Positions 7,772 to 38,990 of a stretch of DNA of 64,000 bases are shown here, in pieces; positions within the stretch are counted from its first letter, which is position 1; each line of letters opens with the position of its first letter. Where the stretch lies: positions 59,721 to 123,720 of the forward strand of contig CBDCWN010000002.1 in the NCBI GenBank assembly GCA_965223535.1, given 5' to 3'. Source of the stretch: Nitrospira sp. Its GTDB lineage: Bacteria > Nitrospirota > Nitrospiria > Nitrospirales > Nitrospiraceae. Under the pieces are notes generated by a model. That model was not told the origin of the DNA. It worked only from the letters and a program-made list of their open reading frames with translations, and did no database searches. The position numbers were made by a program, and so were the translations under genes.

Positions 7772-7880
7772 TGCGAACGAGGAGACGAACGGTCTTATGG
7801 CGACACCGTGATCGTGCAGGGTGTGTCACTCGATGAACAGACAAACAGGCCGTACCATGTGCCGCAATTGACGGAGGGAG

Positions 7881-9329: not shown

Positions 9330-9483
9330 GCCAAGATGAGGGAATCGTCTGCGGTGTTGGGCACAGGTAGACCCAGGCGTCAGCTTTACCAGTGTTGGAG
9401 TGGTCGCCCAATGTGTTTTCGAAAGGCCACGGTCAGAGCCACCGGTGTCCACTTTGAAATGTCTTGAAGGGGGATTATTGACC

Positions 9484-9839
9484 GTGCACTCGCAAACAGA
9501 ACCGAACAACGTCAACACTTCGGTCCACACCGATGTGACACGCATGCTCACCGAGAACCGATGGGCTTTCATTCGCTTTCTGAGCGGTCGTCTGGGGAGC
9601 CCAGATATTGCTGAGGAGGTTTTGCAAGAGTTTTACGTGCGAGCCCTCAGCAAATCGTCTGCGATCAAGAAGCGAGAGAGTATCCCGCAATGGCTGCATC
9701 GCGTCCTCAGGAGCACGCTGGCAGACTTCTATCGTGCCAAGGCGGCGAGACGGAACGTCGAGAAAGAATATTCGCACGTACAACCTGGCGTTGTGTTGGA
9801 CCACGTCGGTAAGGATCCGGAGGCCATGTGCGCCTGTTT
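9484..9839 (+). pseudogene. CorE-like (CxC-motif) ECF sigma factor truncated by a Tn3-family element
   Basis: Sigma region 2 (RFLSGRLGSPDIAEEVLQE...WLHRVLRSTLADFYR) then MCACL, cut by the IR at 9840. Region 4 is absent. The start codon is uncertain. Confidence 0.75.
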
Positions 9840-12800: not shown

Positions 12801-13088
12801 ACCAACTCGAGATCGGCAGGAGTCAAGAGAAAGAATTCGACGAGCTCCTCATGGGTATAGGACGCTCGAAAGTGAGGATAGCCCTCGCCCATCGCCGCAC
12901 CAGCCTCCGCATCAACACGGCTTCACGTAGGCAGAACGGGCAATTTTAGGGCGTCATGAGCGGAATAGCTAGATTCAACCCTCCGTCGTGGGAGGAGAGG
13001 GCCAGGGGCAATACGAAATGTGGACGTGTGTGTGAGGCTGATTCGAGCTCGCTATTGCGTGCCATCGCAGCTTCCCTCCCGTTACCCC
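9840..13088 (-). mobile_element. Resolvase-less Tn3-family element A, copy 1 (3249 bp)
   Basis: 38-bp IRs GGGGTAACGGGAGGGAAGCTGCGATGGCACGCAA(C/T)AGC at 9840-9877 and 13051-13088. Only tnpA lies inside. Confidence 0.93.
9926..12892 (-). CDS. tnpA: Tn3-family transposase (element A)
   Basis: 988 aa with DDE motifs CASDATKF, FVDSHGQSE and GLNVVE, and C-terminal HINPYG. Confidence 0.95.
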   Translation of the reverse strand: MGEGYPHFRASYTHEELVEFFLLTPADLELVFGCRTDVNRCGMALLLKALDYLGHVPDGLEEVPPEVRTFVASQLGLLWDCSEPYAWESRTRDHHLSLIRRYTGWRPCDAFDKDDLEQWLQQKAAYEVHTLDGLFACACHRLRSFRVELPAEGELQRVVQSALSGFFQDTQRHIAAAIPPEVRLRIDALLVVPEGRVISEFERIKADPGKPGVGQFEAEVEKLRAIRAVGLSPDPFERVPWKVLQTLRRRAMNEKASDMREHSDEIRYALMGSVLHMRGLEVTDDVTRMAIELIHRLDVRSEKQLHREWLADLQRVDGKLQILSTVAKAVIESPDGIVREVLFPRVKEETFQHLVAEFDLTGPNLRLLRQAIMQRKFARHYRRILPLLLETLTFRSDNRFQPVLDALAPIQRHVQSSHRYFPAEETIPLEGVVTPAWEEKVCDAIAGERKIHRRYYELCVLQKLQRALKCKEIWVEGSYAFRNPSEDMPRDWGDEPRRRLHYEALGKPVDAQTFVRTLKTRLVESLTAFNRTMPQLNHVRIFHPNKNEERGLWALTKLERQPEAHSLGLIKEAITTQYGILDLLDVFVEADRLVDFTRFFTHSGTKEVRSREALRPLLILDLFAEGTNTGIRRVANANHHYSYDELLYVRKMYFSPEALRNANAAVVNRLLALRNPQLWGQGASSCASDATKFESWKQNPMTEWRARYNGYGVMVYWHVETNAVCIYSQLKSFSNSEVAAMIEGLVRHDTDMRVEKNFVDSHGQSEVAFAFCDLLSTVRLMPRLKRIKYERLYLPGPGTAAEYPHLAGTFARPIRFEWIEQQYDEMVKATVALKQGTASADAILKRYNSYNRTHPTYKALTELGKAAKTLFLCQYLSSRETQREVHEGLNVVENWNATNDFICYGRQGELATNSREQQEVVTLSLQLLQNCLMLINTILVERTIEQEGLWGRLSAEDHRALTPLFHGHINPYGQFTLDLARPSFLRAA

Positions 13089-13262
13089 CATGAGAAGCGC
13101 TCCGGCAACCGTGAGGTCTTGTCAGAGGGGAGGCGATCCCAGAAGAGAGGCCGTGGGGTCGGGCCGAGGGAGGGACATTGACTGAAGCGAATTCTGGAGA
13201 GGGGCGAAGAACAAGGGGCGGTGGATACGCAACCGCCCCAGAACATTGCTCATGTCCCTTGT

Positions 13263-13742
13263 CTACTCGACGGATACCACGATCCGACGCGATCGGTCCT
13301 TGGCTTCGGGCGTCCAGGGTATTCGAACAGCCAGCACTCCATGCTTGCAGGCAGCCTCGGTCTTCGAGACATCGACGCCGTCCGGCAAGGCCACACTTCG
13401 ATGAAACGCGGTGTAGCGACGGCCACGGCCTTCCCCGTTGCCATCACGCCATTCACGCTCGTCCTCATAACTGACATGGAGCATACCAGGCCGGACGGTG
13501 ACATTGAGGTGTTTCGGGTCCAGTCCGGGGATGTCGGCACGGAGAAGCACGTGCTCGTCCGTCTCGTCCATCTCGATCCCAGAGCCGCCCCCGGCAAACC
13601 GAGACCATCCCGTCTCCAAGGGCGACATGAGAAACCGATCAAACAGCTGATTGATGTCATCGCGTAACGACAGAACCTCCTGCGTGTCGACCGGTTTCCG
13701 TTTCCACGGAATCATGTCTTTGAGTTTGCTCATGAGCTCCAT
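13263..13742 (-). CDS. Small heat shock protein (Hsp20/alpha-crystallin)
   Basis: Motifs LRADIPG, FHRSVALP and ACKHGVLAVRIP. SD AAGGAGG precedes the ATG at 13742. Confidence 0.88.
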   Translation of the reverse strand: MELMSKLKDMIPWKRKPVDTQEVLSLRDDINQLFDRFLMSPLETGWSRFAGGGSGIEMDETDEHVLLRADIPGLDPKHLNVTVRPGMLHVSYEDEREWRDGNGEGRGRRYTAFHRSVALPDGVDVSKTEAACKHGVLAVRIPWTPEAKDRSRRIVVSVE

Positions 13743-13978
13743 GGCGTCTCCTCCTTTCTTCCAGTTGGTACAGTGGACATTCCCTTCACCGATTTCGATA
13801 AGGCTCCTCACGCGCCGGTCAAGTCCTCGTATGCGACGTTCCACTGGTTCCTCTAGGGTAGACCTCAGGTCACCAGATCTGTCGTGGAAATCGAGGGTGA
13901 TTTCTTGTCACCCTTGGGAATACAGCATGAGCGATTGAGTTTTGGCCGTCCCCACATGAACCTCTCGACACCGGATAT

Positions 13979-14110
13979 TCACCATTTTGTCGATTTCCGG
14001 TCCGTCCGCCACGTCATCCACGCGCTCACCATGAACGCCAGGATGATCAGGCCGAAGACGACCAAGCCCATCACTTCAGTGCGCGGTAACGCGGCAAGTA
14101 ATTCTCTCAT
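13979..14110 (-). CDS. Putative 43-aa single-TM microprotein (MRELLAALPRTEVMGLVVFGLIILAFMVSAWMTWRTDRKSTKW)
   Basis: Translated by hand. GGAG SD, hydrophobic stretch and basic tail. Confidence 0.4.
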   Translation of the reverse strand: MRELLAALPRTEVMGLVVFGLIILAFMVSAWMTWRTDRKSTKW

Positions 14111-14128
14111 CGCGAGGTCTCCCGCTCT

Positions 14129-14398
14129 TCACCGACCTTTTCTGCCACCCGTGCGCATGATGTCGTTGAGGAGGCGATCCCGATGACGCATGATCATCGC
14201 CCGCCGCCTGGGCCGATCGAGCGACCACCAGCGCAGAGGGCGACTAAAGCGAACAGTCGGCGGCGGGATATTTCGTAAGACGGCTGGGTGCTGAAAGTCA
14301 TAGCCTGCAGCCTGTTGTCTGCCAACCGCAGTTGCGGGCTGAACGATGGCGGCATCGAACGTCCCTGCTAGAACTGTACTTGCACTTCTCGGTTCCAT
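14129..14398 (-). CDS. Hypothetical protein (89 aa)
   Basis: ORF with GGAG SD before the ATG at 14398, co-oriented with neighbours. No recognised motif. Confidence 0.35.
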   Translation of the reverse strand: MEPRSASTVLAGTFDAAIVQPATAVGRQQAAGYDFQHPAVLRNIPPPTVRFSRPLRWWSLDRPRRRAMIMRHRDRLLNDIMRTGGRKGR

Positions 14399-14678
14399 GG
14401 CGAATCTCCATCCTCTTGGCACTTCCTCTCTCCAATTGTGGAAGCACAACGCTATCCCGCTACTCAGTCGTGACACTTCACCACCCACAAGAGACCATTC
14501 ACGCGTCTCTCGTTCTTGCGATGGGTGATGGTTCGTGACTGATTAGGGAAGTCATCATGCAGTGTCATCATCCGTCCACGCCTGACGACTCCGCGTGACT
14601 GACAACGCAGGTAATTCCGTTCGAACACAAGTCAAGACCGACAGGACGCTGATTCAGGAGATGGACTGGGCCAATCTC

Positions 14679-14706
14679 TTGACCAAGACAAAACGAGAAT
14701 TATGAT
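14679..14706 (+). promoter_or_regulatory. Sigma70-like promoter upstream of hsp20
   Basis: TTGACC, 16-bp spacer, TATGAT, about 95 bp upstream of the ATG at 14802. Confidence 0.4.
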
Positions 14707-14801
14707 ACTCGTGAACGCAAGAGCACCGCGTATGAAGGCATACCTTACATCCATACGGGGTGGCCCTGCGCATGTGGTCACACCACGAAAGGAGGTTCAT
14801 C

Positions 14802-15251
14802 ATGAATCTGGTACGCTGGGATCCATTTCGGGAGTTGGAAGATATGAGCCATCGGCTCAACCGACTATTAGCCGGAAAAGACGTGAAGAGCCACGACGGA
14901 ACGGACACCATAATAACGGCCGATTGGGTCCCTCCCGTCGACATCAGCGAGACCGATCAGGAATTTCAGGTCAAGGCGGAGCTTCCAGGGATCAAGAAGC
15001 AGGACATCAAGGTCACGTTGGAGGGCGGCATCCTCACGTTGCAAGGTGAGCGACCGGAGGAGCAAGAGGACAAGGGTCGTCGAATTCATCGCGTGGAACG
15101 GTCCTATGGACGGTTCGTCAGAAGTTTTACGCTTCCCGATGTGGTCGACGCAACTAAGGTCAATGCGGAATTCAAAGATGGGGTGCTGACGTTGCGCCTG
15201 CACAAATCACCAGCGGCTGTCCCCAAGGCCATTGAGGTGAAGGTCGCGTAA
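14802..15251 (+). CDS. Small heat shock protein (Hsp20)
   Basis: MNLVRWDPFRELE...DWVPPVDISET...RVERSYGRFVRSFTLP...FKDGVLTLRL. SD AAGGAGG. Confidence 0.95.
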   Translation: MNLVRWDPFRELEDMSHRLNRLLAGKDVKSHDGTDTIITADWVPPVDISETDQEFQVKAELPGIKKQDIKVTLEGGILTLQGERPEEQEDKGRRIHRVERSYGRFVRSFTLPDVVDATKVNAEFKDGVLTLRLHKSPAAVPKAIEVKVA

Positions 15252-15610: not shown

Positions 15611-16269
15611 ATCTCGTTGCTCCTTGATGGTTGATACAGATCCGCGGAGATGATCTCGACTCCTTAGTTTAGGGTCAACCCCCTGCGTGCGCGTGCGGCG
15701 CATTTGGAGAATCGCCTCCGACAAGCGATCGCGAAGAGGCATGCTCACGGGCGATCTCATTACAGTATCCGTGACAGTTCGCTTTACCATGCGGTGCCGT
15801 AAGGGGAGGTAATAACAGGAAAAAGAAAATCAAGTTGGATAGGAGACGAGGAGGTATCCGGGACGGTGAACAGCACGATCCTCCTCAATCGTCGGCTGAG
15901 AGGCTTATAGAATTGGAGAGAGACTCATGTCCATCGTGTGGTGCACCAGTCGATGCACCCAGCGTAAGGACTGGCACGGATTGTCAAGAATGTCTCAAGC
16001 ACTCAGTGCCTTGTACCTTTTCTCATCTCCCCCTCTTGACTCATCTTATTTTGGAATTACTCGTATTATCAGAATTGACAGACTGGACTGGATGGACGTT
16101 GGTGAAGGGCCCACTGTCTAGCCACCTGTCATAGCGGTGTGCACCTCGGCCCTTCACGCAGTCCTCCCGCTCCAGCGTAACGATTTCTAACAAACTGCTG
16201 ACCCGTGTGGAAGGGTCTCGCCATGACTTTGGCGAGCCCACGCTCGGTCATGGAAGGGAGGTGAACACG

Positions 16270-23407: not shown

Positions 23408-26400
23408 CGCCTATTAGCCACATCCACCCGAAAATCCACAATAAGAAACAATAGCGTCTAGCCACAGCTTTTCAAGGTAGGTATCTCTCATATTCCATAG
23501 GCTTCCCCCTCCGCTCTCGATCCCGTTCCGTTCAGGTTGACAAGCCATTACAATGCTCTAGCTTGTGTGTGTTCGCACAGTCGTGTCTTCACGATCAGGA
23601 TGGATGCCGCGTCGTTTCCCTCAGACAACGATCCGACGGAGACCGATGATCAGGAGCGCCTCACGGAGGCCGACCGCCTGCCCGTCGACATTGATCCCGA
23701 GACCCTGCGGAAATATTTCACGCTGACTGAATCGGATTTAGTCCAGGTCCATCAATGCCGTGGCATCCTCAACAAACTCGGGTTCGCCGTGCTGTTGTGC
23801 ACCCTGCGATGGCGTGGGGCCTTCCTGCGCTCGCTGCAGGATCTGCCCCAGGCCGTCCTCGAAACGGTGGCGACCCAGGTGGGCGTGCTGCCGATCCCGT
23901 TGGATGGCTATCCGCAACACGAGAACACGCGCTACGAACACTATGAACGCATCCGTCAGTACTTGCAGTTCGTGCGCTGTGATGCCACGCAACGGGAGCG
24001 CTTGTTCGATCACTTGGTCGCGATGGCCCAAGGCCGTCCTCGCGCCACGGCTCTCCGTCACGTGGCGGAAGACTGGCTCCAACGGGAACGGATCGTGCGA
24101 CCCGGACGAACGACCCTGCGCGATGCCATTACGGCCGCACGGGAAACCGCACTGCAGGGTGTGTATACGGTGCTGTCTGCGGCCCTCACGGAGAAGCACG
24201 CCGCGGAACTGGATGCCTGGTTGGTCAGTGGTGCTCCAGACTTGGATCACACACCTCCTCAGAAGAGCGTCCCGCGATTCCGTTCACGCCTGGAGTGGTT
24301 GAAGACGGTGCCACGCAAAGAATCCCCGAACGCCCTCCTCACTTTACTGGATCGACTGACGGAGCTGTGCGCCTCCCATCTCAGTACCCTGCCGATCCTG
24401 AGCGAGGTCCATCCCGCCACGCGTCGACTCTTAGCCAGCTGGGGCTACCGCTATGATGTGTGGAGTTTGCGCCGGTTCGCTCCCGCCAAACGGCAGGCGA
24501 TCGTCTTGTGTTTTCTGCAGGCGGCTCGTGCTGAAACAACAGATGGCATCATCGAGATGCAAGATAAACTCATTACCGGCGTCCATAATAAGGCGCGCCA
24601 CCGCTATGAGGAGCTGTTACGCGCGTCAGAGGAGGCACGAACACGAGCCGTCGAGGTGCTGGAGGAGCTGGGAAGCCTGGTACTGGATGACACGGTGTCG
24701 GATGAGGTGCTGCGTCAAGCCATCTTCACCAAGATTCCGAGCGACGATCTGAACCGATTAGTGGCGGGCTGTCGTGCGTTACGAAACGACTCTGCGGGAT
24801 CTCCGCTGGAGTTGGTGGCGCAGTGGTATGGGTATACTCGCCAATATTCTCCCGTGCTGCTGGAGCGGACACCGTTTCAGTTCGCCGAGCACTCTCCCCT
24901 CCGTCGAGCGATCACCTATGTGAACCAGCTCAATCGGCATCATGCGCGGAAGCTGGACGCGGATGCGCCCATTGAGTTTCTGCCGCCCCGGTGGGTGAAG
25001 CATGTGGTGCGACGAGATCGCACGGGAGTCGTGACTCTGTCACGACCGCACTATGAACCGGCGCTCCTGACGACGCTCAATGAGCGGCTGAAATCAGGTG
25101 ATGTGACCGTAGCGGGCTCCCGACGATGGACGGATTTTGAGGACTATCTCATTCCACGCCCGGTGTGGGCAGAGCGACGAGGCGCTTACTATGCTGCGCT
25201 TGGATTGCCCCAAGAGGTGGACCGGTACCTCGCACAGCTGAATGAGAACTTGGGTCAAGTCGCCGGGGCCATTGACCGGCGCGTGCCCTACAATCAGGCC
25301 CTACGCATCGATGCGGCGAAACGCCAGTTCCATCTCGCCGCCCTGAAGGGCCTTGAGCGGCCGGATACGGTGAAGCAGGCGAAAGCATTAATCCAATCAC
25401 GGCTGGCACGCATTGATTTGGTGGACCTCTTGATCGAGATGGACCACCAGACCAACATGCTGCATCACTTTCTCCGCCATCCGGATGCCTCCCGGTTATC
25501 CCCGGCGATTCGTCGCCGAAACGTCCTGGCCGCGTTAATCGCGATCGGCTGTAATATGGGTCCACAGCGGATGGCCGTGGCTTCTGGTCTTCACCTTCAC
25601 GACATTAGTTTTGTCGCAGACTGGTACCTCACCGACGAGGCCTTGAAAGCCGCGAGCGTCGATCTTGTCAACTTTGCAACGCGCCAACCGATGAGCCGCG
25701 TCTATGGCCAAGGGAATACCTGCTCTGCTGATGGCATGCGGTTCTATGTGCCAGTCAACATCTTGGCGGCGGACTATAGTCACGTGCTGCAAGGCCGTGG
25801 CGTGACCCTGTTTGCCCATACATCCGACACCGGCCTGCGGCTCCATCAGCAACCGATTCCCTGTCGGCTGCGGGAGGCCGCCTTCAGTCTCGATGGCTTA
25901 CTGGAGCACGATACCGAACTCAATCCCACCGTCTGCTACACCGACACCCATGGCTATACGGAAGTCGTGATGGCGGCAGGGGCCCTGTTGGGGTTTGATC
26001 TGGCTCCACGCATCAAAGACATTAAGGATCAAACACTCTATAAGATGGACCGTCAGCAGTCCTTCCCGAATTTGGATCCCATACTCACCGGCACGATCAA
26101 ACCGCACCTCGTGCGACAGGCGTGGGATGAAACGGTACGCGTGGTCGCCTCCATTCAGGACCGGATTGTGTCGGCCTCGCTCATCCTGCACCGACTGGGT
26201 TCCTATGCACGACAGAATAGCATCCATCAGGCGTTGGCGGAGATCGGCCGGGTTCACAAGACGATCCACATCCTCAAGACCTTGGACGATGAGGAGTACC
26301 GCCGTCGGATGGGGCGGGAACTCAATAAAGGGGAGGCGTCCCATGCGCTCTCCCGGTTTCTCTGTTTTGGGAAGGAAGGTCATCTGCAAGGGCGGGAATT

Positions 26401-26674
26401 TGGCGATCAGCTCCATACCTTCAGTTGCTTATCCGTGCTTCATAATGCGGTGGTGGCATGGAACATCTTGCACATCGGGCGCGTGGTCGACGAACTCCGC
26501 GCTGAAGGGCATGTGCTTGACGAGGCGACGCTCTCGCTCACGACTCCGCTGTTGCACAAGCACGTGAATCCATACGGACGCTACCATTTTGATGTGGATC
26601 GCATGCGCCAAACGCTCGATCCGGTGGCTCCTGAGGCTTAATGTGGTTTTTCGGGTGGATGTGGCTAATAGGCG
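23408..26674 (+). mobile_element. Resolvase-less Tn3-family element B with CGCC-terminated 38-bp IRs (3267 bp)
   Basis: IRL 23408-23445 CGCCTATTAGCCACATCCACCCGAAAATCCACAATAAG and IRR 26637-26674 match at 36/38. Flanks are AACTA and AATTA. Confidence 0.85.
23600..26641 (+). CDS. tnpA: Tn3-family transposase (element B)
   Basis: DDE motifs CSADGMRF, YTDTHGYT and ELNKGE, and C-terminal HVNPYGRYHF. Probable start is the ATG at 23600. Confidence 0.93.
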   Translation: MDAASFPSDNDPTETDDQERLTEADRLPVDIDPETLRKYFTLTESDLVQVHQCRGILNKLGFAVLLCTLRWRGAFLRSLQDLPQAVLETVATQVGVLPIPLDGYPQHENTRYEHYERIRQYLQFVRCDATQRERLFDHLVAMAQGRPRATALRHVAEDWLQRERIVRPGRTTLRDAITAARETALQGVYTVLSAALTEKHAAELDAWLVSGAPDLDHTPPQKSVPRFRSRLEWLKTVPRKESPNALLTLLDRLTELCASHLSTLPILSEVHPATRRLLASWGYRYDVWSLRRFAPAKRQAIVLCFLQAARAETTDGIIEMQDKLITGVHNKARHRYEELLRASEEARTRAVEVLEELGSLVLDDTVSDEVLRQAIFTKIPSDDLNRLVAGCRALRNDSAGSPLELVAQWYGYTRQYSPVLLERTPFQFAEHSPLRRAITYVNQLNRHHARKLDADAPIEFLPPRWVKHVVRRDRTGVVTLSRPHYEPALLTTLNERLKSGDVTVAGSRRWTDFEDYLIPRPVWAERRGAYYAALGLPQEVDRYLAQLNENLGQVAGAIDRRVPYNQALRIDAAKRQFHLAALKGLERPDTVKQAKALIQSRLARIDLVDLLIEMDHQTNMLHHFLRHPDASRLSPAIRRRNVLAALIAIGCNMGPQRMAVASGLHLHDISFVADWYLTDEALKAASVDLVNFATRQPMSRVYGQGNTCSADGMRFYVPVNILAADYSHVLQGRGVTLFAHTSDTGLRLHQQPIPCRLREAAFSLDGLLEHDTELNPTVCYTDTHGYTEVVMAAGALLGFDLAPRIKDIKDQTLYKMDRQQSFPNLDPILTGTIKPHLVRQAWDETVRVVASIQDRIVSASLILHRLGSYARQNSIHQALAEIGRVHKTIHILKTLDDEEYRRRMGRELNKGEASHALSRFLCFGKEGHLQGREFGDQLHTFSCLSVLHNAVVAWNILHIGRVVDELRAEGHVLDEATLSLTTPLLHKHVNPYGRYHFDVDRMRQTLDPVAPEA

Positions 26675-26884: not shown

Positions 26885-26984
26885 GCCTGTGGCACCTTAT
26901 CACAGCGTCAGATCCGTTGGGCCTTCTATAGCTAAGCCCACTATTACCGATAGACATGGAGGTCGATTTGAGTGATCATGGGGC

Positions 26985-27311
26985 ATGAGATGCTCAGTCG
27001 ACTTGCGTCAACGGGTGGTGGAGTTTGTGCGGAGTGGAGGCAGCAAGGCCGAAGCGGCTCGGCGGTTCAAGGTCGGTGAGGCCAGCGTGTACCGCTGGCT
27101 CAAGCCTGGCGGCATCGCCTACAAGCGCCCAGGCCCTCGCGGTTCTCGCAAGCTGGATTGGGAGCAATTACGCCGTCATGTGGCGGCGCATCCCGATCGC
27201 ACACAAGCGGAACGGGCGCGGCATTTCCAGGTGTCTCGGCATTGCATCTGGAACGCACTCCACAAACTAGCAGTGACCCATAAAAAAAAGGATGGGCTAC
27301 CAAGAACGTGA
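26985..27311 (+). CDS. IS630 transposase OrfA (HTH)
   Basis: SVDLRQRVV...AEAARRFKVGEASVYRWLK. Ends after an A8G run. Confidence 0.85.
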   Translation: MRCSVDLRQRVVEFVRSGGSKAEAARRFKVGEASVYRWLKPGGIAYKRPGPRGSRKLDWEQLRRHVAAHPDRTQAERARHFQVSRHCIWNALHKLAVTHKKKDGLPRT

Positions 27312-27813
27312 TCCGCAGCAACGGAAACGGTTCCTGCGCCTGCGAGAACGGTTCTTTCGTCGCGGCAAACAGCCCGTCCATATCGATGAATGCGGCTTTG
27401 CCCCTTCGATGGCGCGGCGGTATGGGTACGCGCCGAAGGGCCGACGTGTGGACGGCCTGGCCTCCGGGCATCGCCGGCCACGGACCTCGCTGATTGCGGC
27501 CCGTATGGAAGGGCGACTCGCAGAGCCACTGCTCTTCGAGGGGACGTGCGATACGGTGGGCTTCAACTCCTGGCTGCAGACGCAGCTATGCCCGCGCCTC
27601 AACGCTCAGCACCTCGTCATACTGGACAATGCCGCTTTTCACAAATCGCCAGAGACAGCACAGCTCATCGCAGCCACCGGCGCCACGCTGCTCTTCCTGC
27701 CACCGTACTCCCCTGACTTCAACCCGATTGAGCATGACTTTGCCGCTCTCAAAAAACGTCGCGAATATCGGGACACCGTTTCTCTCGAGGAAATTGTCAA
27801 GGCCTATCACTAA
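27292..27813 (+). CDS. IS630 transposase OrfB (DDE)
   Basis: Motifs HIDECGF, ILDNAAFHK and LPPYSPDFNPIE. Confidence 0.85.
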   Translation: MGYQERDPQQRKRFLRLRERFFRRGKQPVHIDECGFAPSMARRYGYAPKGRRVDGLASGHRRPRTSLIAARMEGRLAEPLLFEGTCDTVGFNSWLQTQLCPRLNAQHLVILDNAAFHKSPETAQLIAATGATLLFLPPYSPDFNPIEHDFAALKKRREYRDTVSLEEIVKAYH

Positions 27814-28132
27814 CTATGGGCTTAGCTATAATTCGGTATCTAACCATGGTCCTGAATGACGAACTGGAAGGAGTCTTTCGTCGCTGGTACCCGTTGCTCT
27901 CGGAAGACAGGCATGCGTGAACTGTTGCCTTCTGCGACAGCGGCAATGTGTTCCCTGTTGCCAATTTCCCCTGTGCATAACTTCTCCATTTCCAAAGCGG
28001 CAGCTTTCTCGGTCAGATCCATCGCCCAGCTGAAGTCTTCCTCAATGGCTCCCTCCTTGCAGGACGTTGGCCACATCAGCAGGACAGCCACCAAACAAGA
28101 ACCCCATTGTCGTCAAGTTGTAAGAGGAGGTC

Positions 28133-30553
28133 ATGCAACGGCTGCCGGTCTATTTTCTGTTCTGCCTCAGCTTGATTCTGCCCTTCGCCCAGGAGAGTGC
28201 GACCGCAAAACCATTGACCACCGTGCAGATTGCGACTGTCCGAGATGGACCATCGGACCTCGTGCCGGAGCTCCGTGATCTCATTCGCAAAGAACTCACG
28301 GAATTGACCAGCCATGAGTTCGACGTGCGGTTTCCCGACGAGTGGCAACTGCAGGGAGGATGGTCGGTCAAGGGAGTGAACCAGGCGATTGATCGCGTGC
28401 TGACTCAGCCTCGTGTCGATCTTGTCATCGCTCTCGGGATTCTCGCCTCCCACGAAGTCAGTCAGCGGCGGCAACTTTCCAAGCCTGTGATCGCCCCCTT
28501 CGTCATTGATCCGCATCTGCAGGGCGTGCCTTTCAAGAAGGGCACAAGCGGGGTCAAGAACTTGAACTATCTGGTCTCCTTGAAGAACTTCGAGCGTAAT
28601 CTCGAGGCCTTTCAAGAGGTGTTTCCCTTCACGCAGCTGAGTGTGCTTGCCGATCGCGTGTTGCTCGAGGCGTTTCCGTTGCTTGAGAGCCGAGCGCGCA
28701 CCCTCGCCAAAGCGCATGGTGTCAGCCTCACAGTCGTCCCGGTGGAGACCTCCGCTGAAGCGATACTTGGCTCGCTTCCTCAGAATACCGACGCTGTCTA
28801 TCTGTCGCCGTTGCCGCGTCTATCCTCTCGTGAGCAGGATCGTCTGATTGCAGGGCTGAACACCCGCCGGCTGCCCAGCTTTTCGGCAGTGGGGCAACGG
28901 GAAGTGCAGCGGGGCGTCACCGTGGCCCTGTCTCCTGAATTGGATCCCCGCAAACTGGCACGAACCATCGCCGTCAATATCCAGCGCATTCTGTTAGGAA
29001 CGGATGCCGGACAAGTTGAGGTGACATTCACACGGGGCGAGCACCTCACCATCAATATGGCCACGGTCCGCGCGATCGACAAATGGCCAAGTTTCCAAGT
29101 GCTGAGTGAAGCCGAATTACTCAATGAGGATAGCTCTCTGTCCTCACAGCGCCTGTCACTGTTCGATGCCGTGCACCATGCCATGGGAGGAAATCTTGAT
29201 CTGGCTGCCGCGGATCGCAAAGTGGAGGCGGGAGTCGGCCAGGTGGGCCAGGCGCGCTCCGCCCTCTTACCTCAGGTGCTCGTCGGCACATCGGGTGTCT
29301 TAAATGGTCGAGGACCGGATGCGTTTGGAACCGGTGGGACTCCAGGCCAAGGAGCGGTGGTGTTCGGAGGATTTCGGCAAACCCTGTATTCGGATAATGC
29401 CTGGACCAACTATACGGTCCAGCAGAAGGCCCAACTCTCTCGTGAAGAAGAGCTCAATCAGCTGCGGTTGGACACCGCTCAGCATGCGGCCATCGCCTAT
29501 CTCACCGTTCTGCGGGCCAAGACCGTCCGACGCATTCAGAAGGAGAACCTCAAGCTCACACGCTCCAACTTGGAGCTGGCCTCGGCTCGTGAGGCGGTGG
29601 GCTACGCGCTCCGGGATGAGGTGTTTCGATGGGAGGCGGAGGTGGCGAATGGGCAAAAAGCCGTGGTGTCGATCGAAGCGCAAGAACGGCAGGCGGAAGT
29701 CCAGGTGAATCGGATCTTGAATCGACCGTTGGAAGAGCCATTCCAAACCGTGGAACAGACGTTGGAAGACCCTGCGTTGCTGGGTGATACGCGCCAGCTC
29801 TTTGCCTACATCGAGAATCCTCGGGGATTCCAATTGTTTCGGGCGTTCGAAGCGGAAGAGGGGATCAAGGCTGCGCCGGAGATCCGGCGGCTTGATGCGT
29901 TGATCGCGGCGAAGGAACGGATGATCACGAATGCGGAACGAGCCTTCTGGATGCCGGAACTGACCTTGCAAGGAGCGGGATTTCAGCAATACGCGCGCGG
30001 CGGCGGCGGAGCCGGCAGCTTGACAATCCCCTTTGGTCCTGTCGGCTTTGCCCAGAGCCAGACCGATTTTTATGTCGCCAGCATTGGACTGACTTTCCCA
30101 TTGTTTCAAGGCGGGCATAAGACGGCCACGGCCCTGAGGGTCCGTAAAGAGCTGCGTGAGGTGCAGCTCGAACGGACCGCGACGATACAACGCGTGGAAG
30201 AACGGGTCCGTGCCGCCCTCTACCAAACCGGTGCATCCTTCCCCAGCATCAGACTCTCGCGGAAAGCGGCTGAGTCGGCCGGTAAGACGTTGGATCTCGT
30301 CCTGGATCAATATTCTCGAGGCACGGTCGACATCATCAAACTCTTGAATTCCCAACATGCCGCGGTGACCGCACACGAGGCGGCGGCCAACGCAGTGTAC
30401 GATTTCCTCATCGATTTGATGCGGGTCCAACGCGCCGTCGGGCACATGAGTTTTTTTGAGAGCCCGGAGGAACGAGCCGCTTGGTTCCAACGCTTGAAAA
30501 CATTCTTTGTAAACGCCGGTGTCTCGCCGATGCGACGCGAAGGTCAACGATAG
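28133..30553 (+). CDS. Fusion of an ABC substrate-binding-like domain and a TolC-family outer-membrane efflux domain (806 aa)
   Basis: N-terminal ~330 aa ends in LPSFS...NIQRILLG...LTINMATVRAI, like the ABC_sub_bind C-terminus. Two OEP repeats follow (LLPQV, FWMPEL). Confidence 0.75.
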   Translation: MQRLPVYFLFCLSLILPFAQESATAKPLTTVQIATVRDGPSDLVPELRDLIRKELTELTSHEFDVRFPDEWQLQGGWSVKGVNQAIDRVLTQPRVDLVIALGILASHEVSQRRQLSKPVIAPFVIDPHLQGVPFKKGTSGVKNLNYLVSLKNFERNLEAFQEVFPFTQLSVLADRVLLEAFPLLESRARTLAKAHGVSLTVVPVETSAEAILGSLPQNTDAVYLSPLPRLSSREQDRLIAGLNTRRLPSFSAVGQREVQRGVTVALSPELDPRKLARTIAVNIQRILLGTDAGQVEVTFTRGEHLTINMATVRAIDKWPSFQVLSEAELLNEDSSLSSQRLSLFDAVHHAMGGNLDLAAADRKVEAGVGQVGQARSALLPQVLVGTSGVLNGRGPDAFGTGGTPGQGAVVFGGFRQTLYSDNAWTNYTVQQKAQLSREEELNQLRLDTAQHAAIAYLTVLRAKTVRRIQKENLKLTRSNLELASAREAVGYALRDEVFRWEAEVANGQKAVVSIEAQERQAEVQVNRILNRPLEEPFQTVEQTLEDPALLGDTRQLFAYIENPRGFQLFRAFEAEEGIKAAPEIRRLDALIAAKERMITNAERAFWMPELTLQGAGFQQYARGGGGAGSLTIPFGPVGFAQSQTDFYVASIGLTFPLFQGGHKTATALRVRKELREVQLERTATIQRVEERVRAALYQTGASFPSIRLSRKAAESAGKTLDLVLDQYSRGTVDIIKLLNSQHAAVTAHEAAANAVYDFLIDLMRVQRAVGHMSFFESPEERAAWFQRLKTFFVNAGVSPMRREGQR

Positions 30554-30574: not shown

Positions 30575-31564
30575 ATGTCGAATCCGAAGATTCCTCGCCC
30601 AGTCATTGCCGGAATCGTGATTCTGCTCATTGGATTGGGGGTGTCTGTATGGTGGTTCTTCATTCGAACTCCGCCGTTGGTGGGATTTGGAAGCGGCAAT
30701 GGGCGGCTTGAGGTCCAGGAAATAGACGTGGCCACCAAGTTCCCTGGCCGGATTGCGGAAGTGCTAGCTGATGAAGGTCAGCCAGTGCAGGCCGGACAGG
30801 TTGTCGCTCGTATGGATATCAGTTCATTGCAGGCCCAATTGCGGGAAGCAGAAGCCCAGGTTCAGCGTACCCGTCAAGGGCAGAGAACCGCCAAGGCGTT
30901 GCACGCGCAGCGACAGGGTGAGTTGCTCTTGGCGTCACGAGATCTGGAGCGGGCGCGTGGTCTCTACGTCAATGCCAATATCTCCGTGAAGGATTACGAT
31001 CGTGCGCAGACCGCGATGAAAACCGCGACGGCTGCCTTAACAGCAGCCGAGGCCCACATGGCCGAAGCGGACGCCGCAGTCCAGGCGGCCCTTGCTCAAA
31101 CGGAACGGATCCAGGCAGACCTCAAGGAGTGCGACTTAACGGCACCGCGGAACGGCCGGGTGCAATTCAGGTTGCATGAGCCCGGTGAGGTGCTCCCACC
31201 AGGCGGGAAAGTCCTGACGCTCATCGATCCGACGGATGTCTACATGACGGTATTTCTCCCGGCTGAGGAGACCGGACGGATCGCGTTAGGAGCAGATGCC
31301 AGGATTACGCTGGATGCGGCCCCGAATCTGGTGATCCCGGCCACGGTCTCCTTCGTCGCCGACAAGGCGCAGTTCACCCCGAAGGAAGTGGAGACGAGGT
31401 CGGAGCGCGAGAAACTGATGTTCCGGATCAAGGTCCAGATTGATCCGGAGGTGGTCAAGGGCCATGAGGCGATGGTCAAACCAGGACTCCCGGGAATGGC
31501 CTACGTGCGACTCGATTCGGCCGCGCAGTGGCCCTCATCCCTTCAAACGAGGCTCAGGCCATGA
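30575..31564 (+). CDS. yhiI: HlyD-family membrane fusion protein (YhiI-like)
   Basis: [20 protein letters not shown] and [22 protein letters not shown]. Upstream of rbbA. Confidence 0.85.
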
Positions 31565-34305
31565 ATGCGCTGGCAACCGTCGCTCGTCTTGAGCAGGTCA
31601 CCCATCGCTATGGGGATACGACGGCCCTCGAAGCGGTGACGCTTGACATTCCAGCCGGGGGCATGGTGGGGCTCATCGGTCCGGACGGGGTCGGGAAATC
31701 CAGTTTATTGGGGTTGCTCGCCGGCGCGAAGAAAATCCAAAGTGGCCACGTCGACGTCCTCGGTGGCGATATGGCGATCGTGCGGCATCGTACCGAAGTC
31801 TACCCGCGGATTGCGTATATGCCGCAAGGACTCGGGGGGAATCTCTATCCCACACTGTCCGTGTTCGAGAATGTGGATTTCTTCGGCCGCCTGTTCGGGC
31901 AGGGTCGAGAAGAACGGGAATGGCGGATCACGGAGCTGCTACAGAGCACGGGCCTGGCGCGCTTTCGAGAGCGCCCAGCGGGAAAACTCTCGGGCGGCAT
32001 GAAACAAAAGCTGGGACTCTGCTGCGCACTGATTCATGACCCGGAGTTGCTGATTCTGGATGAACCGACGACCGGAGTGGATCCTCTGTCGCGTCGACAG
32101 TTCTGGGAGTTGATCAACCGGATCCGTGAACGCCGCATGGACATGAGTGTGTTGGTGGCCACGGCCTACATGGAAGAGGCTGAGCGTTTCGACTGGCTGG
32201 TGGCGATGGATGCCGGCAGGGTCCTGGCGACGGAGAGCCCGGGGGATCTGAAGACCCGATTCGCGGTCCAGACTCTGGAGGAAGCGTTCATTGCCCTGCT
32301 CCCCGAAGAAAAGCGTCGAGGTCACAAGACCATCACGATCTCCCCTCGGCAAAATCAGGAGGGCACGCTGGCCATCGAGGCGCAGGGCCTCACGATGCGG
32401 TTCGGGACGTTCACCGCCGTGGATCATGTGAGCTTCCGCATCGAGCGGGGTGAAATCTTCGGCTTTCTCGGTTCCAACGGTTGTGGCAAGACCACCACGA
32501 TGAAGATGCTCACGGGACTGCTCTCCGCGACGGAAGGCGAGGCCAGCCTGTTCGGACATCCGGTGAATGCCCAGGATCTGGAAACACGGAAACGCGTCGG
32601 GTTCATGTCCCAGGCCTTCTCCCTCTATGGTGAACTGACGGTGCGCCAGAACCTCGAGTTGCACGCGAAGCTCTTCCATCTCCAGCCGGAGCGGATTCCG
32701 GGACGTATGGCTGAGCTGACCGAACGGTTTAAGCTGGACGCTTATCTGGATGATCTGGCCGAGGCGCTCCCGCTCGGGATTCGCCAACGTCTCTCCCTGG
32801 CGGTCGCGGTGGTCCACGAGCCGGAGATGTTGATCCTGGATGAGCCAACCTCCGGCGTCGACCCGGTCGCCCGCGACGGGTTCTGGGAACTGCTGATCGA
32901 ACTCTCTCGAAAAGACAGTGTAACGATCTTCATCTCGACCCATTTTATGAACGAGGGCGAACGGTGCGACCGCATCTCCTTGATGCACGCGGGGCGCGTG
33001 CTCGTGAGCGATACGCCGGACGCTTTGATCAAAACTCGCGGCACGGCCTCCCTCGAAGAGGCCTTCATCAGTTGTCTCGAAGAAGCGAGCCGGGGTGGGA
33101 TGCAGAAAGCACCTCCGGAGAAAGCTACCGCGAGCACACTGCGCGCCGCACCACCGGTGCAAGACCATCGTCGGGCCTCGTTCAGCCTCCACCGCATGCT
33201 GGCGTATGCCAGGCGGGAAAGTCTGGAGATTTGGCGCGATCCCATTCGGCTGACCTTTGCGCTGCTCGGATCGGTGGTCCTGATGTTTATCCTTGGGTAC
33301 GGCATTAATCTAGACGTGGAACATCTTCGATTCGCCACGTTGGACCGAGACCGAACCCTGCAGAGCCGGGACTATAGTTGGAACATTGCAGGTTCGCACT
33401 ATTTTATCGAACGGCCGCCGATCACCGACGATGCCGAGCTGGATCGTCGAATGCGGAGCGGCGAACTCAGTATGGCGCTCGAAATTCCTTCCGGATTCGG
33501 CCGGGACCTCAAACAAGGACGGCAGCCGGAGATCGGCGTGTGGATTGACGGTGCCATGCCGTTTCGGGCTGAGACCATCAAGGGCTATGCGCAGGGACTT
33601 CACGTCCAGTATCTCGGCGACCTTGCCCAACGCACCTATGGCCTCACACCCAAAGCAGGCTTTGCTGATCTCGAGTTTCGCTACCGATACAATCAGGATT
33701 TCGAGAGCCTCGAGGCTATGGTCCCGGCCGTGATTCCGCTGCTCTTGGTCTTCATTCCGTCCATTATGATGGCGCTGGGTGTGGTGCGAGAGAAGGAACT
33801 CGGATCCATTACCAATCTCTATGTCACACCGGTCACCCGCCTTGAGTTTCTGCTTGGAAAGCAACTGCCGTACATCGTGGTCAGCATGATCAGTTACTTT
33901 GGGCTGGTCGCACTGGCTGTGGTGGTGTTCAAGGTGTCTCTGAAAGGCAGTTTCGCGACTCTCACGCTGGGCGCCTTGCTCTACGTGACGGCGACGACGG
34001 GCGTAGGGCTCCTGATCTCCGCCTTCACCAACAGCCAGGTTGCCGCATTGGCCGGGACAGCGATCGGGACACTGTTGCCGACCATTCAGTTTTCTGGGTT
34101 GATCGAGCCGGTGGGGTCGATCGAGGGGGCGGGTGCGTTCATCGGACCCATCTGGCCTGCGACCTATTTCCTCGTCATCAGTCGCGGAGTCTTTACCAAG
34201 GCGCTTGGGGTCGGAGACCTCTATGGGGAACTGATGGCGTTGGCAGTGTTCATCCCCGTCTTGACCCTGCTCAGCATGGTTCTGTTGAAGAAACAAGGCA
34301 CCTGA
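31561..34305 (+). CDS. rbbA: RbbA-type ABC protein (two ATPase domains plus ABC-2 membrane domain)
   Basis: [34 protein letters not shown] and a C-terminal permease. ATG at 31561 overlaps the upstream stop. Confidence 0.92.
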
Positions 34306-34307
34306 GC

Positions 34308-35432
34308 ATGAACCGATTTACCAATATCATCCAGCTAGGCATCAAAGAGCTACGGAGTCTCTGGCATGACAAGGTGCTCTTCTTCCTCATCATCTGGATG
34401 TTTTCTGGTCAGGTCTATACGGCCGCGAAAGCGGCGTCCCGAGAGCTACATCACGCCCCCATTGCTGTCGTGGATGAGGACCGATCGGCGTTGTCCGAGC
34501 GCATCATCGGTGCCTTTTACCCTCCGCATTTCAACCCACCGCGGCTGATCTCGCTGGCAGAAGTTGACCCAGGTCTCGATACCGGTCGGTACACCTTTAT
34601 TCTCGATATTCCTCCGGACTTTCAAAAGGATGTGCTTGCCGGGAAACAGCCGGCGCTCCAGGTCAATATCGATGCTACACGGATGACGCAAGCGTTCATC
34701 GGCATGAACTATATCCGGAGTATCGTGACGGGTGAAGTCCACGAATTTGTGCAGCGACATCGTGGTGGACTGGCATTGCCGGTCACGCTTACCACTCATG
34801 TGAAGTTCAACCCCAATCTCAACGGCATCTGGTTCGGCGGCGTGATGGAGATCATCAGTGAGGTGACGCTGCTGTCAATTATCCTGACCGGCGCCGCGCT
34901 CATTCGTGAGCGCGAGCACGGGACGCTTGAACATCTGCTCGTCATGCCACTCAGACCCTTCGAAATTATGATGGCCAAAGTGTGGGCCAACAGTCTCGTG
35001 GTGCTGGTCTGCGCCGCATTGTCGTTGCGGTTCATGGTACAGGGAGCGTTGGAAATGCCCATCGCCGGCTCCACGGTCTTGTTCCTGTTTGGAGTCCTGC
35101 TGCACCTGTTCTCAACCGCGTCGATTGGTATTCTGATGGCCACGCTGGCTCGCTCCATGCCGCAATTCGGGCTGCTGATGATTCTCGTCATCCTGCCGCT
35201 CCAATTGCTGTCAGGAGGTGTCACGCCACGAGAAAGCATGCCGGAGGTTGTCCAGACCATCATGCTGGCTGCGCCAACGACCCATTTCACCGCCGCAGCC
35301 CAGGCCATCCTGTACCGCGGCGCCGGATTGGAGGTGGTGTGGCCCCAGTTTGCGGCCATTATCGGCATCGGTGTCGTCTTTTTCGTGGCGGCCCTGCGGC
35401 GCTTCCGTGCGAGCCTCGCCGCCCAAAGCTGA
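34308..35432 (+). CDS. yhhJ: ABC-2 permease YhhJ-like
   Basis: LGIKELRSL, VNIDAT, REREHGTLEHLLVMP and LSGGVTPRESMP. Confidence 0.88.
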   Translation: MNRFTNIIQLGIKELRSLWHDKVLFFLIIWMFSGQVYTAAKAASRELHHAPIAVVDEDRSALSERIIGAFYPPHFNPPRLISLAEVDPGLDTGRYTFILDIPPDFQKDVLAGKQPALQVNIDATRMTQAFIGMNYIRSIVTGEVHEFVQRHRGGLALPVTLTTHVKFNPNLNGIWFGGVMEIISEVTLLSIILTGAALIREREHGTLEHLLVMPLRPFEIMMAKVWANSLVVLVCAALSLRFMVQGALEMPIAGSTVLFLFGVLLHLFSTASIGILMATLARSMPQFGLLMILVILPLQLLSGGVTPRESMPEVVQTIMLAAPTTHFTAAAQAILYRGAGLEVVWPQFAAIIGIGVVFFVAALRRFRASLAAQS

Positions 35433-35528: not shown

Positions 35529-36473
35529 ATGACGTGGGTTCTGTCGATGAGATACGGAGGCGTCGTAGGCTGGCTGCTGACCCTGACCGCGCTGACGGTG
35601 AGCCAGGTCAGTGCAGAAGAAGCGTCGGAGAAGACGGTCAGTGCGGTCATTGATTGCCGATACGAGCAGAGCGATGGCGGCACTCGTCAGTCAGCATTCC
35701 CGAAGGACGACGTGTTCCGGCCCTTACTCGCCGATCCGAAGCAACCGCAATTCTTTGCCAGCTGGCAGGCAACCCGTGTGAGGACCAATCAAACGTCAGC
35801 CAATATCGGATCGGTGGGGTTCGGTGAGAACTTCGGCTTCTACACGAGGCGAGAGGGGTGTAACGGCTGGCAGGTCGGGATCCTGGCGGGTGTCTTTGCG
35901 CAGTTTAATCTCGATGCGCCGTCAAAGGATCTGATCAACGCCGATTATGTGGTGGGCATACCGGTATCCTGGCGATCCGGAGGATGGTCGACGAGAGTCA
36001 GGCTTTATCACCAGAGCAGCCATCTCGGCGACGAGTTTCTGCTGGGCCGGCCAGGATTTGACCGGGTGAACCTCAGTTTTGAGGAGATCGAAGCCATCGT
36101 GTCGTACGACAATCGATGGGCGAGGCTGTATGCGGGTGGAGGGCATTTGATTCATCGAGAACCAGACTCGCTCGACCGGAATCGAGTGCAGTGGGGATTT
36201 GAACTCCGAGGCCCGGCGATGCCATCGCCGATCCTGGGAAGCATGGTTGAAGGTCTGTTCATCACGCCCATCCTCGGCGCAGACTTCAAGTCTTTCGAGG
36301 AATTGCACTGGATTATCAACACGAATGTCATCGGCGGACTCGAATGGTCGATGGAAGGATCGACCCGCCGGTTTCGGGTCTTGGTGAACTACTATCACGG
36401 CTTCAATCCGTACGGGCAGTTCTTTGCGCAGAAAATTGAGACCATCGGGTTCGGGCTGTATCTCGCACTCTAA
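35529..36473 (+). CDS. DUF1207-like exported/outer-membrane protein
   Basis: Signal peptide, FRPLLADPKQP, LINADYVVG, RLYHQSSHLGDE and a terminal aromatic pattern GFGLYLAL. Confidence 0.7.
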   Translation: MTWVLSMRYGGVVGWLLTLTALTVSQVSAEEASEKTVSAVIDCRYEQSDGGTRQSAFPKDDVFRPLLADPKQPQFFASWQATRVRTNQTSANIGSVGFGENFGFYTRREGCNGWQVGILAGVFAQFNLDAPSKDLINADYVVGIPVSWRSGGWSTRVRLYHQSSHLGDEFLLGRPGFDRVNLSFEEIEAIVSYDNRWARLYAGGGHLIHREPDSLDRNRVQWGFELRGPAMPSPILGSMVEGLFITPILGADFKSFEELHWIINTNVIGGLEWSMEGSTRRFRVLVNYYHGFNPYGQFFAQKIETIGFGLYLAL

Positions 36474-38718: not shown

Positions 38719-38990
38719 GGGGAGACCCCAAGAAACGGATTTTTACGTACGCTAAGAACCGGTGAGCCTGGGACCGGGAGGCCGAAGAGGGCGGAAGTTG
38801 CCTTTCGAGACTCGCTTGTCGATACGCCACAAGTAATCGCCGGTGAGGCCGATGTGCTCCCACCGGAGCGGTGACACGGCGTGTTCCAGATAGACCGTGT
38901 TCCACAGCATGATCGCGGCACCAGGAGATTTAAGCCGCTGGCGCGATGATCTTGGTTCTCCTCGGCAAGATCACGGATGCGCAGCGCGAA
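38719..38990 (-). mobile_element. Right-end remnant of a Tn21/Tn501-type transposon (IR plus decayed tnpA 3' end)
   Basis: 38-bp IR GGGGAGACCCCAAGAAACGGATTTTTACGTACGCTAAG at 38719-38756. Minus strand reads [10 protein letters not shown] / [31 protein letters not shown] with a frameshift and an internal deletion. Confidence 0.82.

Follow-up and report, generated by a model that had tools for sequence, protein, structure and literature searches.

Within a 64,000-nucleotide stretch of DNA from Nitrospira sp. (assembly GCA_965223535.1, contig CBDCWN010000002.1, positions 59,721 to 123,720 of the forward strand; hereafter 'the window'), an open reading frame (ORF) at 28133..30553 on the forward strand encodes an 806-residue protein in which a periplasmic binding protein (PBP)-like domain is joined to a TolC-family outer membrane factor (OMF), as judged from its translation, from Pfam and NCBIfam matches, and from full-length homologues of about 800 residues. 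The gene starts with ATG behind a strong Shine-Dalgarno sequence (GAGGAGG). An earlier note on this DNA had described an 806-residue protein with a signal peptide, a region resembling ABC_sub_bind and TolC repeats, followed by hlyD, rbbA and yhhJ genes; all of these elements were found.

The fusion protein and its two domains

The protein begins with a putative Sec-type signal peptide that lacks a lipobox (residues 1-25, 28133..28207; MQRLPVYFLFCLSLILPFAQESATA, read directly from the translation), and a lipobox-like motif occurs in just two of 83 members of the family. It continues with a PBP domain of the type I fold, of the sort seen in PF04392 (ABC_sub_bind) and with its cleft remodelled (residues 29-330, 28217..29122), a short linker that follows a conserved EAELLNE motif (residues 331-340, 29123..29152), and a TolC-type channel region comprising the four beta-strands and long helices of one protomer (residues 341-795, 29153..30517), all on the forward strand.

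At the level of sequence profiles, the two halves are recognized with very different strengths. The OEP family (PF02321) matches two tandem stretches (E 7.5e-31, 107.8 bits), and the NCBIfam model TIGR01844 also matches (E 8.8e-34), under its subfamily cut-off. ABC_sub_bind, on the other hand, matches residues 85-314 with an E-value of 3.6e-4 (20.3-23.5 bits), below its gathering cut-off of 25.9. However, the same profile individually matches 37 of 42 diverse N-terminal domains of the family (best E 8.6e-12), and a profile built from those 42 members matches two solved proteins of the Protein Data Bank (3LKV at E 1.7e-9 and 3LFT at E 5.6e-5).

An AlphaFold2 monomer model (mean predicted local distance difference test score, pLDDT, of 82), built on 42 homologues, shows residues 29-330 as lobes of alternating strands and helices and residues 343-795 as a TolC protomer. 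In structural alignments (VIA), residues 29-331 superimpose on 3LKV with Z 26.2 (root-mean-square deviation, rmsd, of 3.4 A; 291 of 296 residues aligned), and the domain also matches 3LFT (Z 25.2) and 6HNI (Z 24.8). Residues 341-776 superimpose on residues 1-411 of TolC (1EK9) with Z 29.3 (395 residues aligned, rmsd 3.3 A), and the channel part as a whole matches TolC, OprM and CusC (Foldseek E about 1e-18; Z 29-30 to TolC). Residue 341 of the model is aligned with residue 1 of TolC, that is, with the mature N-terminus of the Escherichia coli protein, and the block that links the two domains, variable in its alignment columns, has a low pLDDT of about 63. The profile matches and the predicted fold confirm that the weak Pfam match is real and that the N-terminal region adopts the two-lobed architecture of a type I periplasmic binding protein, so that the resemblance to ABC_sub_bind asserted in the earlier note is borne out, although the domain is about 300 residues long rather than 330. 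The outcome that the note had named as refuting its proposal, an N-terminal region with some other fold, is thus not what the model shows. The fusion of a PBP-like domain to a complete TolC is likewise confirmed as real.

Relative to solved OMFs (TolC 1EK9 and 2XMN, OprM 1WP1, CusC 3PIK), residues 341-776 share the same fold (Z 26-30, about 395 residues aligned), with two OEP repeats and with four strands and long helices per protomer; the fusion differs from them in its low identity (about 18-20%), in its extra 300-residue N-terminal PBP domain and in having no lipid anchor. Its 806 residues far exceed the OMF family mean of 472+/-30 reported in a 2016 survey, in which outer-membrane pore proteins were rarely fused to other domains (PMC4827864). 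The N-terminal domain shares the two-lobed type I fold of VC_1101 (3LKV, bound to Phe), SP1069/TrpX (3LFT, Trp) and CD0873 (6HNI, Tyr), with Z 25-26, and has in common with PF04392 proteins an NxT/NLNY strand, an ERG loop and an INxxxA helix. In contrast to those proteins, which are free or lipid-anchored partners of ATP-binding cassette (ABC) importers, it is neither.

The operon and its relatives

Three genes follow the fusion gene on the same strand. The first, separated from it by 21 nucleotides, encodes a periplasmic adaptor of the HlyD type, anchored in the membrane by its N-terminus (30575..31564; HlyD_3 and HlyD_D23 matches, PRK03598 at E 4e-39). The second encodes RbbA, with two ATP-binding domains and an ABC-2 membrane domain in one chain (31561..34305), a full-length match to the NF033858 equivalog at 1546 bits against a cut-off of 1050. 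Its open frame begins with a GTG at 31528; the alignment to its 64%-identical counterpart on the plasmid pSULKU01 of Sulfuricurvum kujiense begins at residue 15 of that frame, and the start is therefore likely to be the ATG at 31561, which overlaps the hlyD stop codon. Two nucleotides beyond rbbA lies the gene for a YhhJ-like ABC-2 permease (34308..35432; ABC2_membrane_3, E 3.6e-37), the partner half of RbbA. Scans for promoters and terminators returned hits at chance level only. The fusion OMF, HlyD, RbbA and permease genes constitute a compact OMF-adaptor-ABC unit, conserved in ten further Nitrospira-type loci (one of them cut at the end of a contig) and on pSULKU01; the self-contained tripartite exporter proposed in the earlier note stands to that extent, as seen from gene adjacency and conservation.

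The same order of HlyD-type adaptor, RbbA and ABC-2 permease is found in the yhiI-rbbA-yhhJ operon of E. coli, which is not known to have an adjacent duct gene. Whereas the operon in the window is headed by a dedicated duct gene, none adjoins the RbbA operon of another genome of the same bacterial family (G136), which consists of genes for a sigma-54 activator, a 239-residue ORF, HlyD, RbbA and YhhJ. The source genome itself carries, on a separate 4.0-Mb contig, a YbhGFSR-like locus with an unfused duct (G000:C3:1206374-1212318), headed by an ordinary 482-residue TolC and also comprising a 726-residue protein with two ATP-binding domains and two ABC-2 permeases; these ABC components are 39-47% identical to parts of RbbA.

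The closest parallel in a cultured strain emerged from a search of plasmids. On the 118-kb pSULKU01 of Sulfuricurvum kujiense DSM 16994, a member of the Campylobacterota, the four genes stand in the same order (OMF fusion, HlyD, rbbA, permease), and the full-length OMF (WP_041667226.1), for which 'ABC transporter substrate binding protein' is the sole annotation, has 31% identity over 782 residues and retains most of the family's invariant residues. Unlike the locus in the window, that of pSULKU01 is flanked by two TetR regulators and accompanied by lipid-hydrolase genes: positions 6355-15050 of the plasmid (NC_014754.1, locus L119) hold TetR, PBP-OMF, HlyD, rbbA, permease and TetR genes in succession, and nearby lie genes for a phospholipase A (PLA1 with a Sel1 repeat), a patatin-like phospholipase and an HD phosphohydrolase. 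The plasmid search also returned a far more distant 726-residue protein of Cetobacterium, the N-terminal domain of which is not recognized by the family profile.

The binding cleft and its conservation

The ligands of PF04392 proteins with known structures are Phe, Tyr or Trp (PMC10443332), and in Streptococcus suis TrpX residues T108, A127, T129, D152 and N233 hold the amino and carboxyl groups of the ligand (PMC9382623, PMC6816091). When these positions are mapped onto the fusion protein through a HMMER alignment, they correspond to I103, F123, I125, S149 and R229, and in 42 diverse members the same five columns hold V/I/L, F, I, a variable residue and R/Q/H, respectively. The T, A, T, D and N that grip the ligand in PF04392 proteins are thus replaced in the fusion. 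Because all five canonical contact residues have been exchanged, canonical amino-acid binding by the N-terminal domain appears, from its sequence, very unlikely, and canonical ligand capture unlikely.

What the domain has kept instead is an invariant set of its own. Eleven positions (D38, K117, P118, S139, N143, Y146, P248, G261, R277, N308 and P319) are identical in 42 of 42 diverse members, with D38, K117, S139, Y146 and R277 being specific to this family relative to PF04392 proteins, and the set is the same whether the member is linked to an RbbA exporter or to a pump of the resistance-nodulation-division (RND) class. Across 83 sequences, mean pairwise identity is 45.5% for the N-terminal domain versus 49.2% for the channel, a similar degree of conservation. 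Several of the invariant or near-invariant residues come just after the ends of beta-strands, the places at which the type I binding-protein fold usually holds its ligands.

Distribution of the family

The fusion proteins form a large family. A phmmer search with residues 26-335 against 1.84 billion representatives gave 1735 matching representative clusters, 614 of them at E<=1e-30, and 106 of the best 150 matches were full length (at least 739 residues). The twelve shortest matches were inspected individually; they stop inside the domain, continue into TolC helix 1, or carry frameshifted or out-of-frame tails. Stand-alone or split forms of the domain were rejected on this basis, the short matches being truncated or frameshifted fusions, and no free-standing or split orthologue was present among these twelve. 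A few representatives display longer architectures, in which the PBP and OEP regions are preceded by a protein kinase domain (P0265, 1190 residues), an SH3_3 domain (P0228, 881 residues) or a beta-propeller-like N-terminus (P0239, 1268 residues); these could be real or could be gene-calling merges.

A scan of species-representative genomes yielded 332 relatives, of which the best 80 fall in Nitrospira, other Nitrospirales, Nitrospinota, Thermodesulfobacteriota, Gemmatimonadota, Acidobacteriota, Gammaproteobacteria, KSB1 and others, and include the isolate Desulfosarcina alkanivorans PL12 (Thermodesulfobacteriota). The phyla that carry the fusion include Nitrospirota, Thermodesulfobacteriota, Gemmatimonadota, Acidobacteriota, Pseudomonadota and Campylobacterota. 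Within its own lineage the gene is patchy, being carried by three of 200 other genomes sampled from the phylum, ten of 300 from the family and two of 74 from the genus; the source genome has a single fusion copy and several ordinary TolC paralogues. In some genomes the gene appears to be decaying, unless the stops in its sequence are sequencing errors: one copy in the Nitrospira family (L011, genome G336) has an in-frame TGA, and another (L019/L021/L022, genome G214) is broken into three pieces by TAA stops. In one metagenome-assembled genome labelled 'Planctomycetaceae bacterium' (JAHBXU010000001.1, locus L056) the complete operon is present, 76-79% identical to that of the window and nested inside the Nitrospira clade, which points to mis-binning or recent transfer.

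Database labels for these proteins are inconsistent: 'TolC family protein' and 'ABC transporter substrate binding protein' are used, singly or together. A literature search by domain accessions and words found no paper on the architecture. The fusion is conserved in many phyla and, apparently, unstudied.

Partner pumps and phylogeny

Neighbouring genes were called and clustered at 88 loci, chosen as those of the members most similar to the window protein. Among them, HlyD, RbbA and YhhJ follow the fusion only in Nitrospira-type loci that are at least 57% identical (nine complete, plus one cut by a contig end). At 55 other loci the neighbours are an adaptor of about 375 residues and an RND transporter of about 1030 residues (ACR_tran, 540 bits), arranged either as OMF-adaptor-RND or as adaptor-RND-OMF. 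Five such RND partners, taken from five clades, score about 395-485 bits against 1250, far under every NCBIfam RND subfamily cut-off; with all five below the cut-offs, assignment to a heavy-metal or multidrug class was abandoned, and their sequences suggest a divergent, unnamed group. Genes for an uptake-type ABC importer (permease and ATPase) were absent beside the fusion in all 88 loci, the neighbours being efflux components. In 12 loci (L045 at 15650-16246 and 11 others), mainly those of Nitrospirales, a protein of about 185 residues without a Pfam or NCBIfam match (cluster F2) is also encoded, directly after the RND gene in nine of the 12.

A maximum-likelihood tree (a quick search over 83 rows, with long branches) places the RbbA-linked Nitrospira members in one clade with a Shimodaira-Hasegawa-like approximate likelihood ratio (SH-aLRT) support of 100, sister to RND-linked Nitrospirota with a joint support of 100. 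A single switch from RND to RbbA fitted this tree; it was dropped when the Sulfuricurvum OMF, placed additionally, proved to be a long outlying branch outside the Nitrospira clade. Because the RbbA pairing also occurs there, on a plasmid, the pairing recurs and the class of partner appears to be labile. With RND pumps at most of the surveyed loci and RbbA in two lineages only, the N-terminal domain belongs to the duct rather than to the RbbA pump.

Genomic setting and neighbouring genes

The window lies on a 170-kb contig with a GC content of 57.2%, against 54.8% for the 4.0-Mb contig that presumably represents the chromosome. Upstream of the operon, a 1034-residue ORF (23537-26641) was considered as a possible RND pump, which was ruled out, since it encodes a full-length Tn3-family transposase (DDE_Tnp_Tn3, 405 bits). 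Between it and the OMF gene lies an IS630-family element (26927-27830), flanked by TA and bounded by imperfect 34-nucleotide inverted ends (76%), with its transposase in two frames (26985-27311 and 27292-27813) behind a run of eight A residues at about 27283-27290. The OMF gene, which lies 300 bp downstream of this element, may have had its native promoter or regulator displaced by it. Downstream, a Tn3-type 38-bp terminal repeat (GGGGAGACCCC...ACGCTAAG; 38719-38756) follows a block made up of the OMF-RbbA operon, a DUF1207 gene and a GlgX-like gene, the last two lying between the operon and the Tn3-type end. Given these flanking elements and the patchy distribution of the fusion, the block is accessory DNA and has probably been transferred.

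The DUF1207 gene (35529..36473, forward strand; PF06727, E 3e-64) encodes a predicted 12-stranded outer-membrane beta-barrel, and a member of its cluster (F5) follows yhhJ, four or five genes after the fusion, in eight Nitrospira-type loci; the family is common in Nitrospira at large (6213 matches). The best TM-scores of its model (pLDDT 73) are to the outer-membrane phospholipase A (OMPLA) structures 1QD5, 1FW3 and 7EZZ (TMt 0.60-0.65), with autotransporter barrels matching at similar E-values, and an invariant H161-Q-S-S-H165-x-G-D-E motif resembles the H-x-S-x-G site of OMPLA. Homology to the phospholipase A of Sulfuricurvum was rejected (BLASTP E 0.41, not significant), the likeness being one of fold and motif only. 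Taken with the PLA1 and patatin genes of Sulfuricurvum, the OMPLA-like fold hints, weakly and from no more than two lineages, that the RbbA-linked form of the system handles lipids.

The role of the extra domain

The reading that we consider the most probable is that the PBP-OMF protein serves as an outer-membrane exit duct dedicated to a tripartite exporter of the ABC type, encoded by the four genes, and that its N-terminal domain is an accessory module intrinsic to the duct rather than a receptor for the substrate of the pump. In such an exporter, as the families of these proteins suggest, RbbA together with the YhhJ-like permease would make up the inner-membrane unit that is powered by ATP, and the membrane-anchored HlyD protein would connect it to the tip of the duct. 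The extra domain of about 300 residues, descended from solute-binding proteins, is joined by a tether of about ten residues to the point that matches the mature N-terminus of TolC. In TolC this point lies at the equatorial belt, on the outer face of the helical barrel; three PBP domains might then form a periplasmic collar round the barrel of the trimer, below the outer membrane. The loss of the amino-acid-binding residues, together with the retention of a separate invariant set, is what leads to this reading. The domain would be a property of the duct lineage, whichever pump sits below, and would bind a single conserved partner, or else a ligand other than an amino acid (probably a hydrophobic one), so as to act on the stability, placement or opening of the duct.

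Several points weigh against this interpretation. D126 (in a TDP-like motif), N143 and N308 are part of motifs common to PF04392 proteins and may have a structural role only, and the invariant residues may line either the cleft or a face of the domain that touches the channel. The position of the domain relative to the barrel is only loosely predicted by the monomer model (the linker having a pLDDT of about 63), and the predicted collar geometry depends on the location of the TolC N-terminus at the equatorial belt. The proposed assembly of the four proteins draws on gene adjacency and conservation, and the proportion of 55 RND-linked loci in 88 describes the members closest to the window protein rather than the family as a whole.

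A possible, if less than probable, alternative is that the domain is a pure scaffold: a binding protein that has lost its function, its cleft filled, and that does no more than stabilize or position the trimer, itself without lipid, beneath the outer membrane, a task that may fall to a lipid anchor or to the lipoprotein YbjP in other ducts. The hydrophobic residues that stand in place of polar ligand contacts would fit such a role, as would the service of one domain to two unrelated classes of pump and the near absence of lipoboxes from the family, whereas many pump-linked OMFs are reported to be lipoproteins (10.1101/2025.03.19.644130). A precedent may be the TolC-YbjP complex (9V52 and 9TG4, both of which appear among the structural matches of the model), in which an accessory periplasmic protein is reported to sit on the TolC trimer in a 3:3 ratio (PMC13095208, 10.1101/2025.03.19.644130) and may be an analogue of the putative collar; YbjP, however, is a lipoprotein in its own right, with a DUF3828 domain, unlike the fused PBP fold. 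Yet a scaffold has no need to keep both lobes, the hinge and the strand-end loops invariant across phyla, and any contact between domain and barrel is hypothetical. Anchoring of the domain to peptidoglycan, from an attachment point that lies, judging by pump tomograms, between the outer membrane and the level of the wall, is a speculation, and no wall-binding motif was found.

Rather unlikely, in our estimate, is a gate or clamp operated by a ligand, in which the domain still opens and closes round a small molecule and its motion, transmitted through the equatorial belt, controls the opening of the duct. The two lobes and their hinge are intact, the model fits the closed form of CD0873 (6HNI, Z 24.8) better than the open form (6HNJ, Z 20.8), purifying selection on the domain equals that on the channel, and the invariant D38-G39, G102, D126, Y146 and S251 follow the ends of beta-strands, where the general rule of the fold would place a ligand. 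Nevertheless, all five canonical contacts have been lost, three of them to bulky hydrophobic residues that may fill the pocket; gene context suggests no ligand; and TolC opens at its periplasmic tip, tens of angstroms from the point of attachment. We also regard as doubtful the notion that the domain is a working sensor, which would close on a conserved molecule of the periplasm, or one derived from the envelope, and in doing so clamp or release the duct; if true, this would be the first efflux channel of the outer membrane to contain its own allosteric switch for a ligand, usable with RND or ABC pumps alike.

The capture of substrate, in which the domain would bind the exported compound in the periplasm and pass it to the pump or the duct, was the second of two roles suggested by the earlier note for the RbbA exporter, and it now appears highly improbable. 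The ancestry of the domain among binding proteins that feed transporters speaks in its favour. However, RND pumps take the place of RbbA at 55 of the 88 loci, the invariant residues are the same with both classes of pump and across many phyla, the canonical PF04392 site has been lost, and TolC ducts are not known to have a lateral entry. Finally, a merger of two genes through an assembly or frameshift error can be dismissed: nothing was found in its favour, and it is refuted by full-length homologues of about 800 residues that number in the hundreds, come independently from many sources and phyla, and include those in the complete genomes of the cultured Sulfuricurvum kujiense and Desulfosarcina alkanivorans.

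Implications

Ducts of the TolC family are usually seen as passive tubes of about 470 residues that are opened by their pumps and bear, at most, a lipid anchor, whereas those of the lineage described here, which spans six or more phyla, bear a binding-protein domain that is well conserved. Should this domain sense a ligand or position the duct, a layer of regulation or assembly would be added at the outer-membrane end of efflux pumps. The fusion also provides a handle on two unstudied groups of pumps, the RbbA/YhhJ exporters and a divergent RND subfamily, and the existence of cultured carriers (Sulfuricurvum kujiense DSM 16994 and Desulfosarcina alkanivorans PL12) makes these ideas testable.

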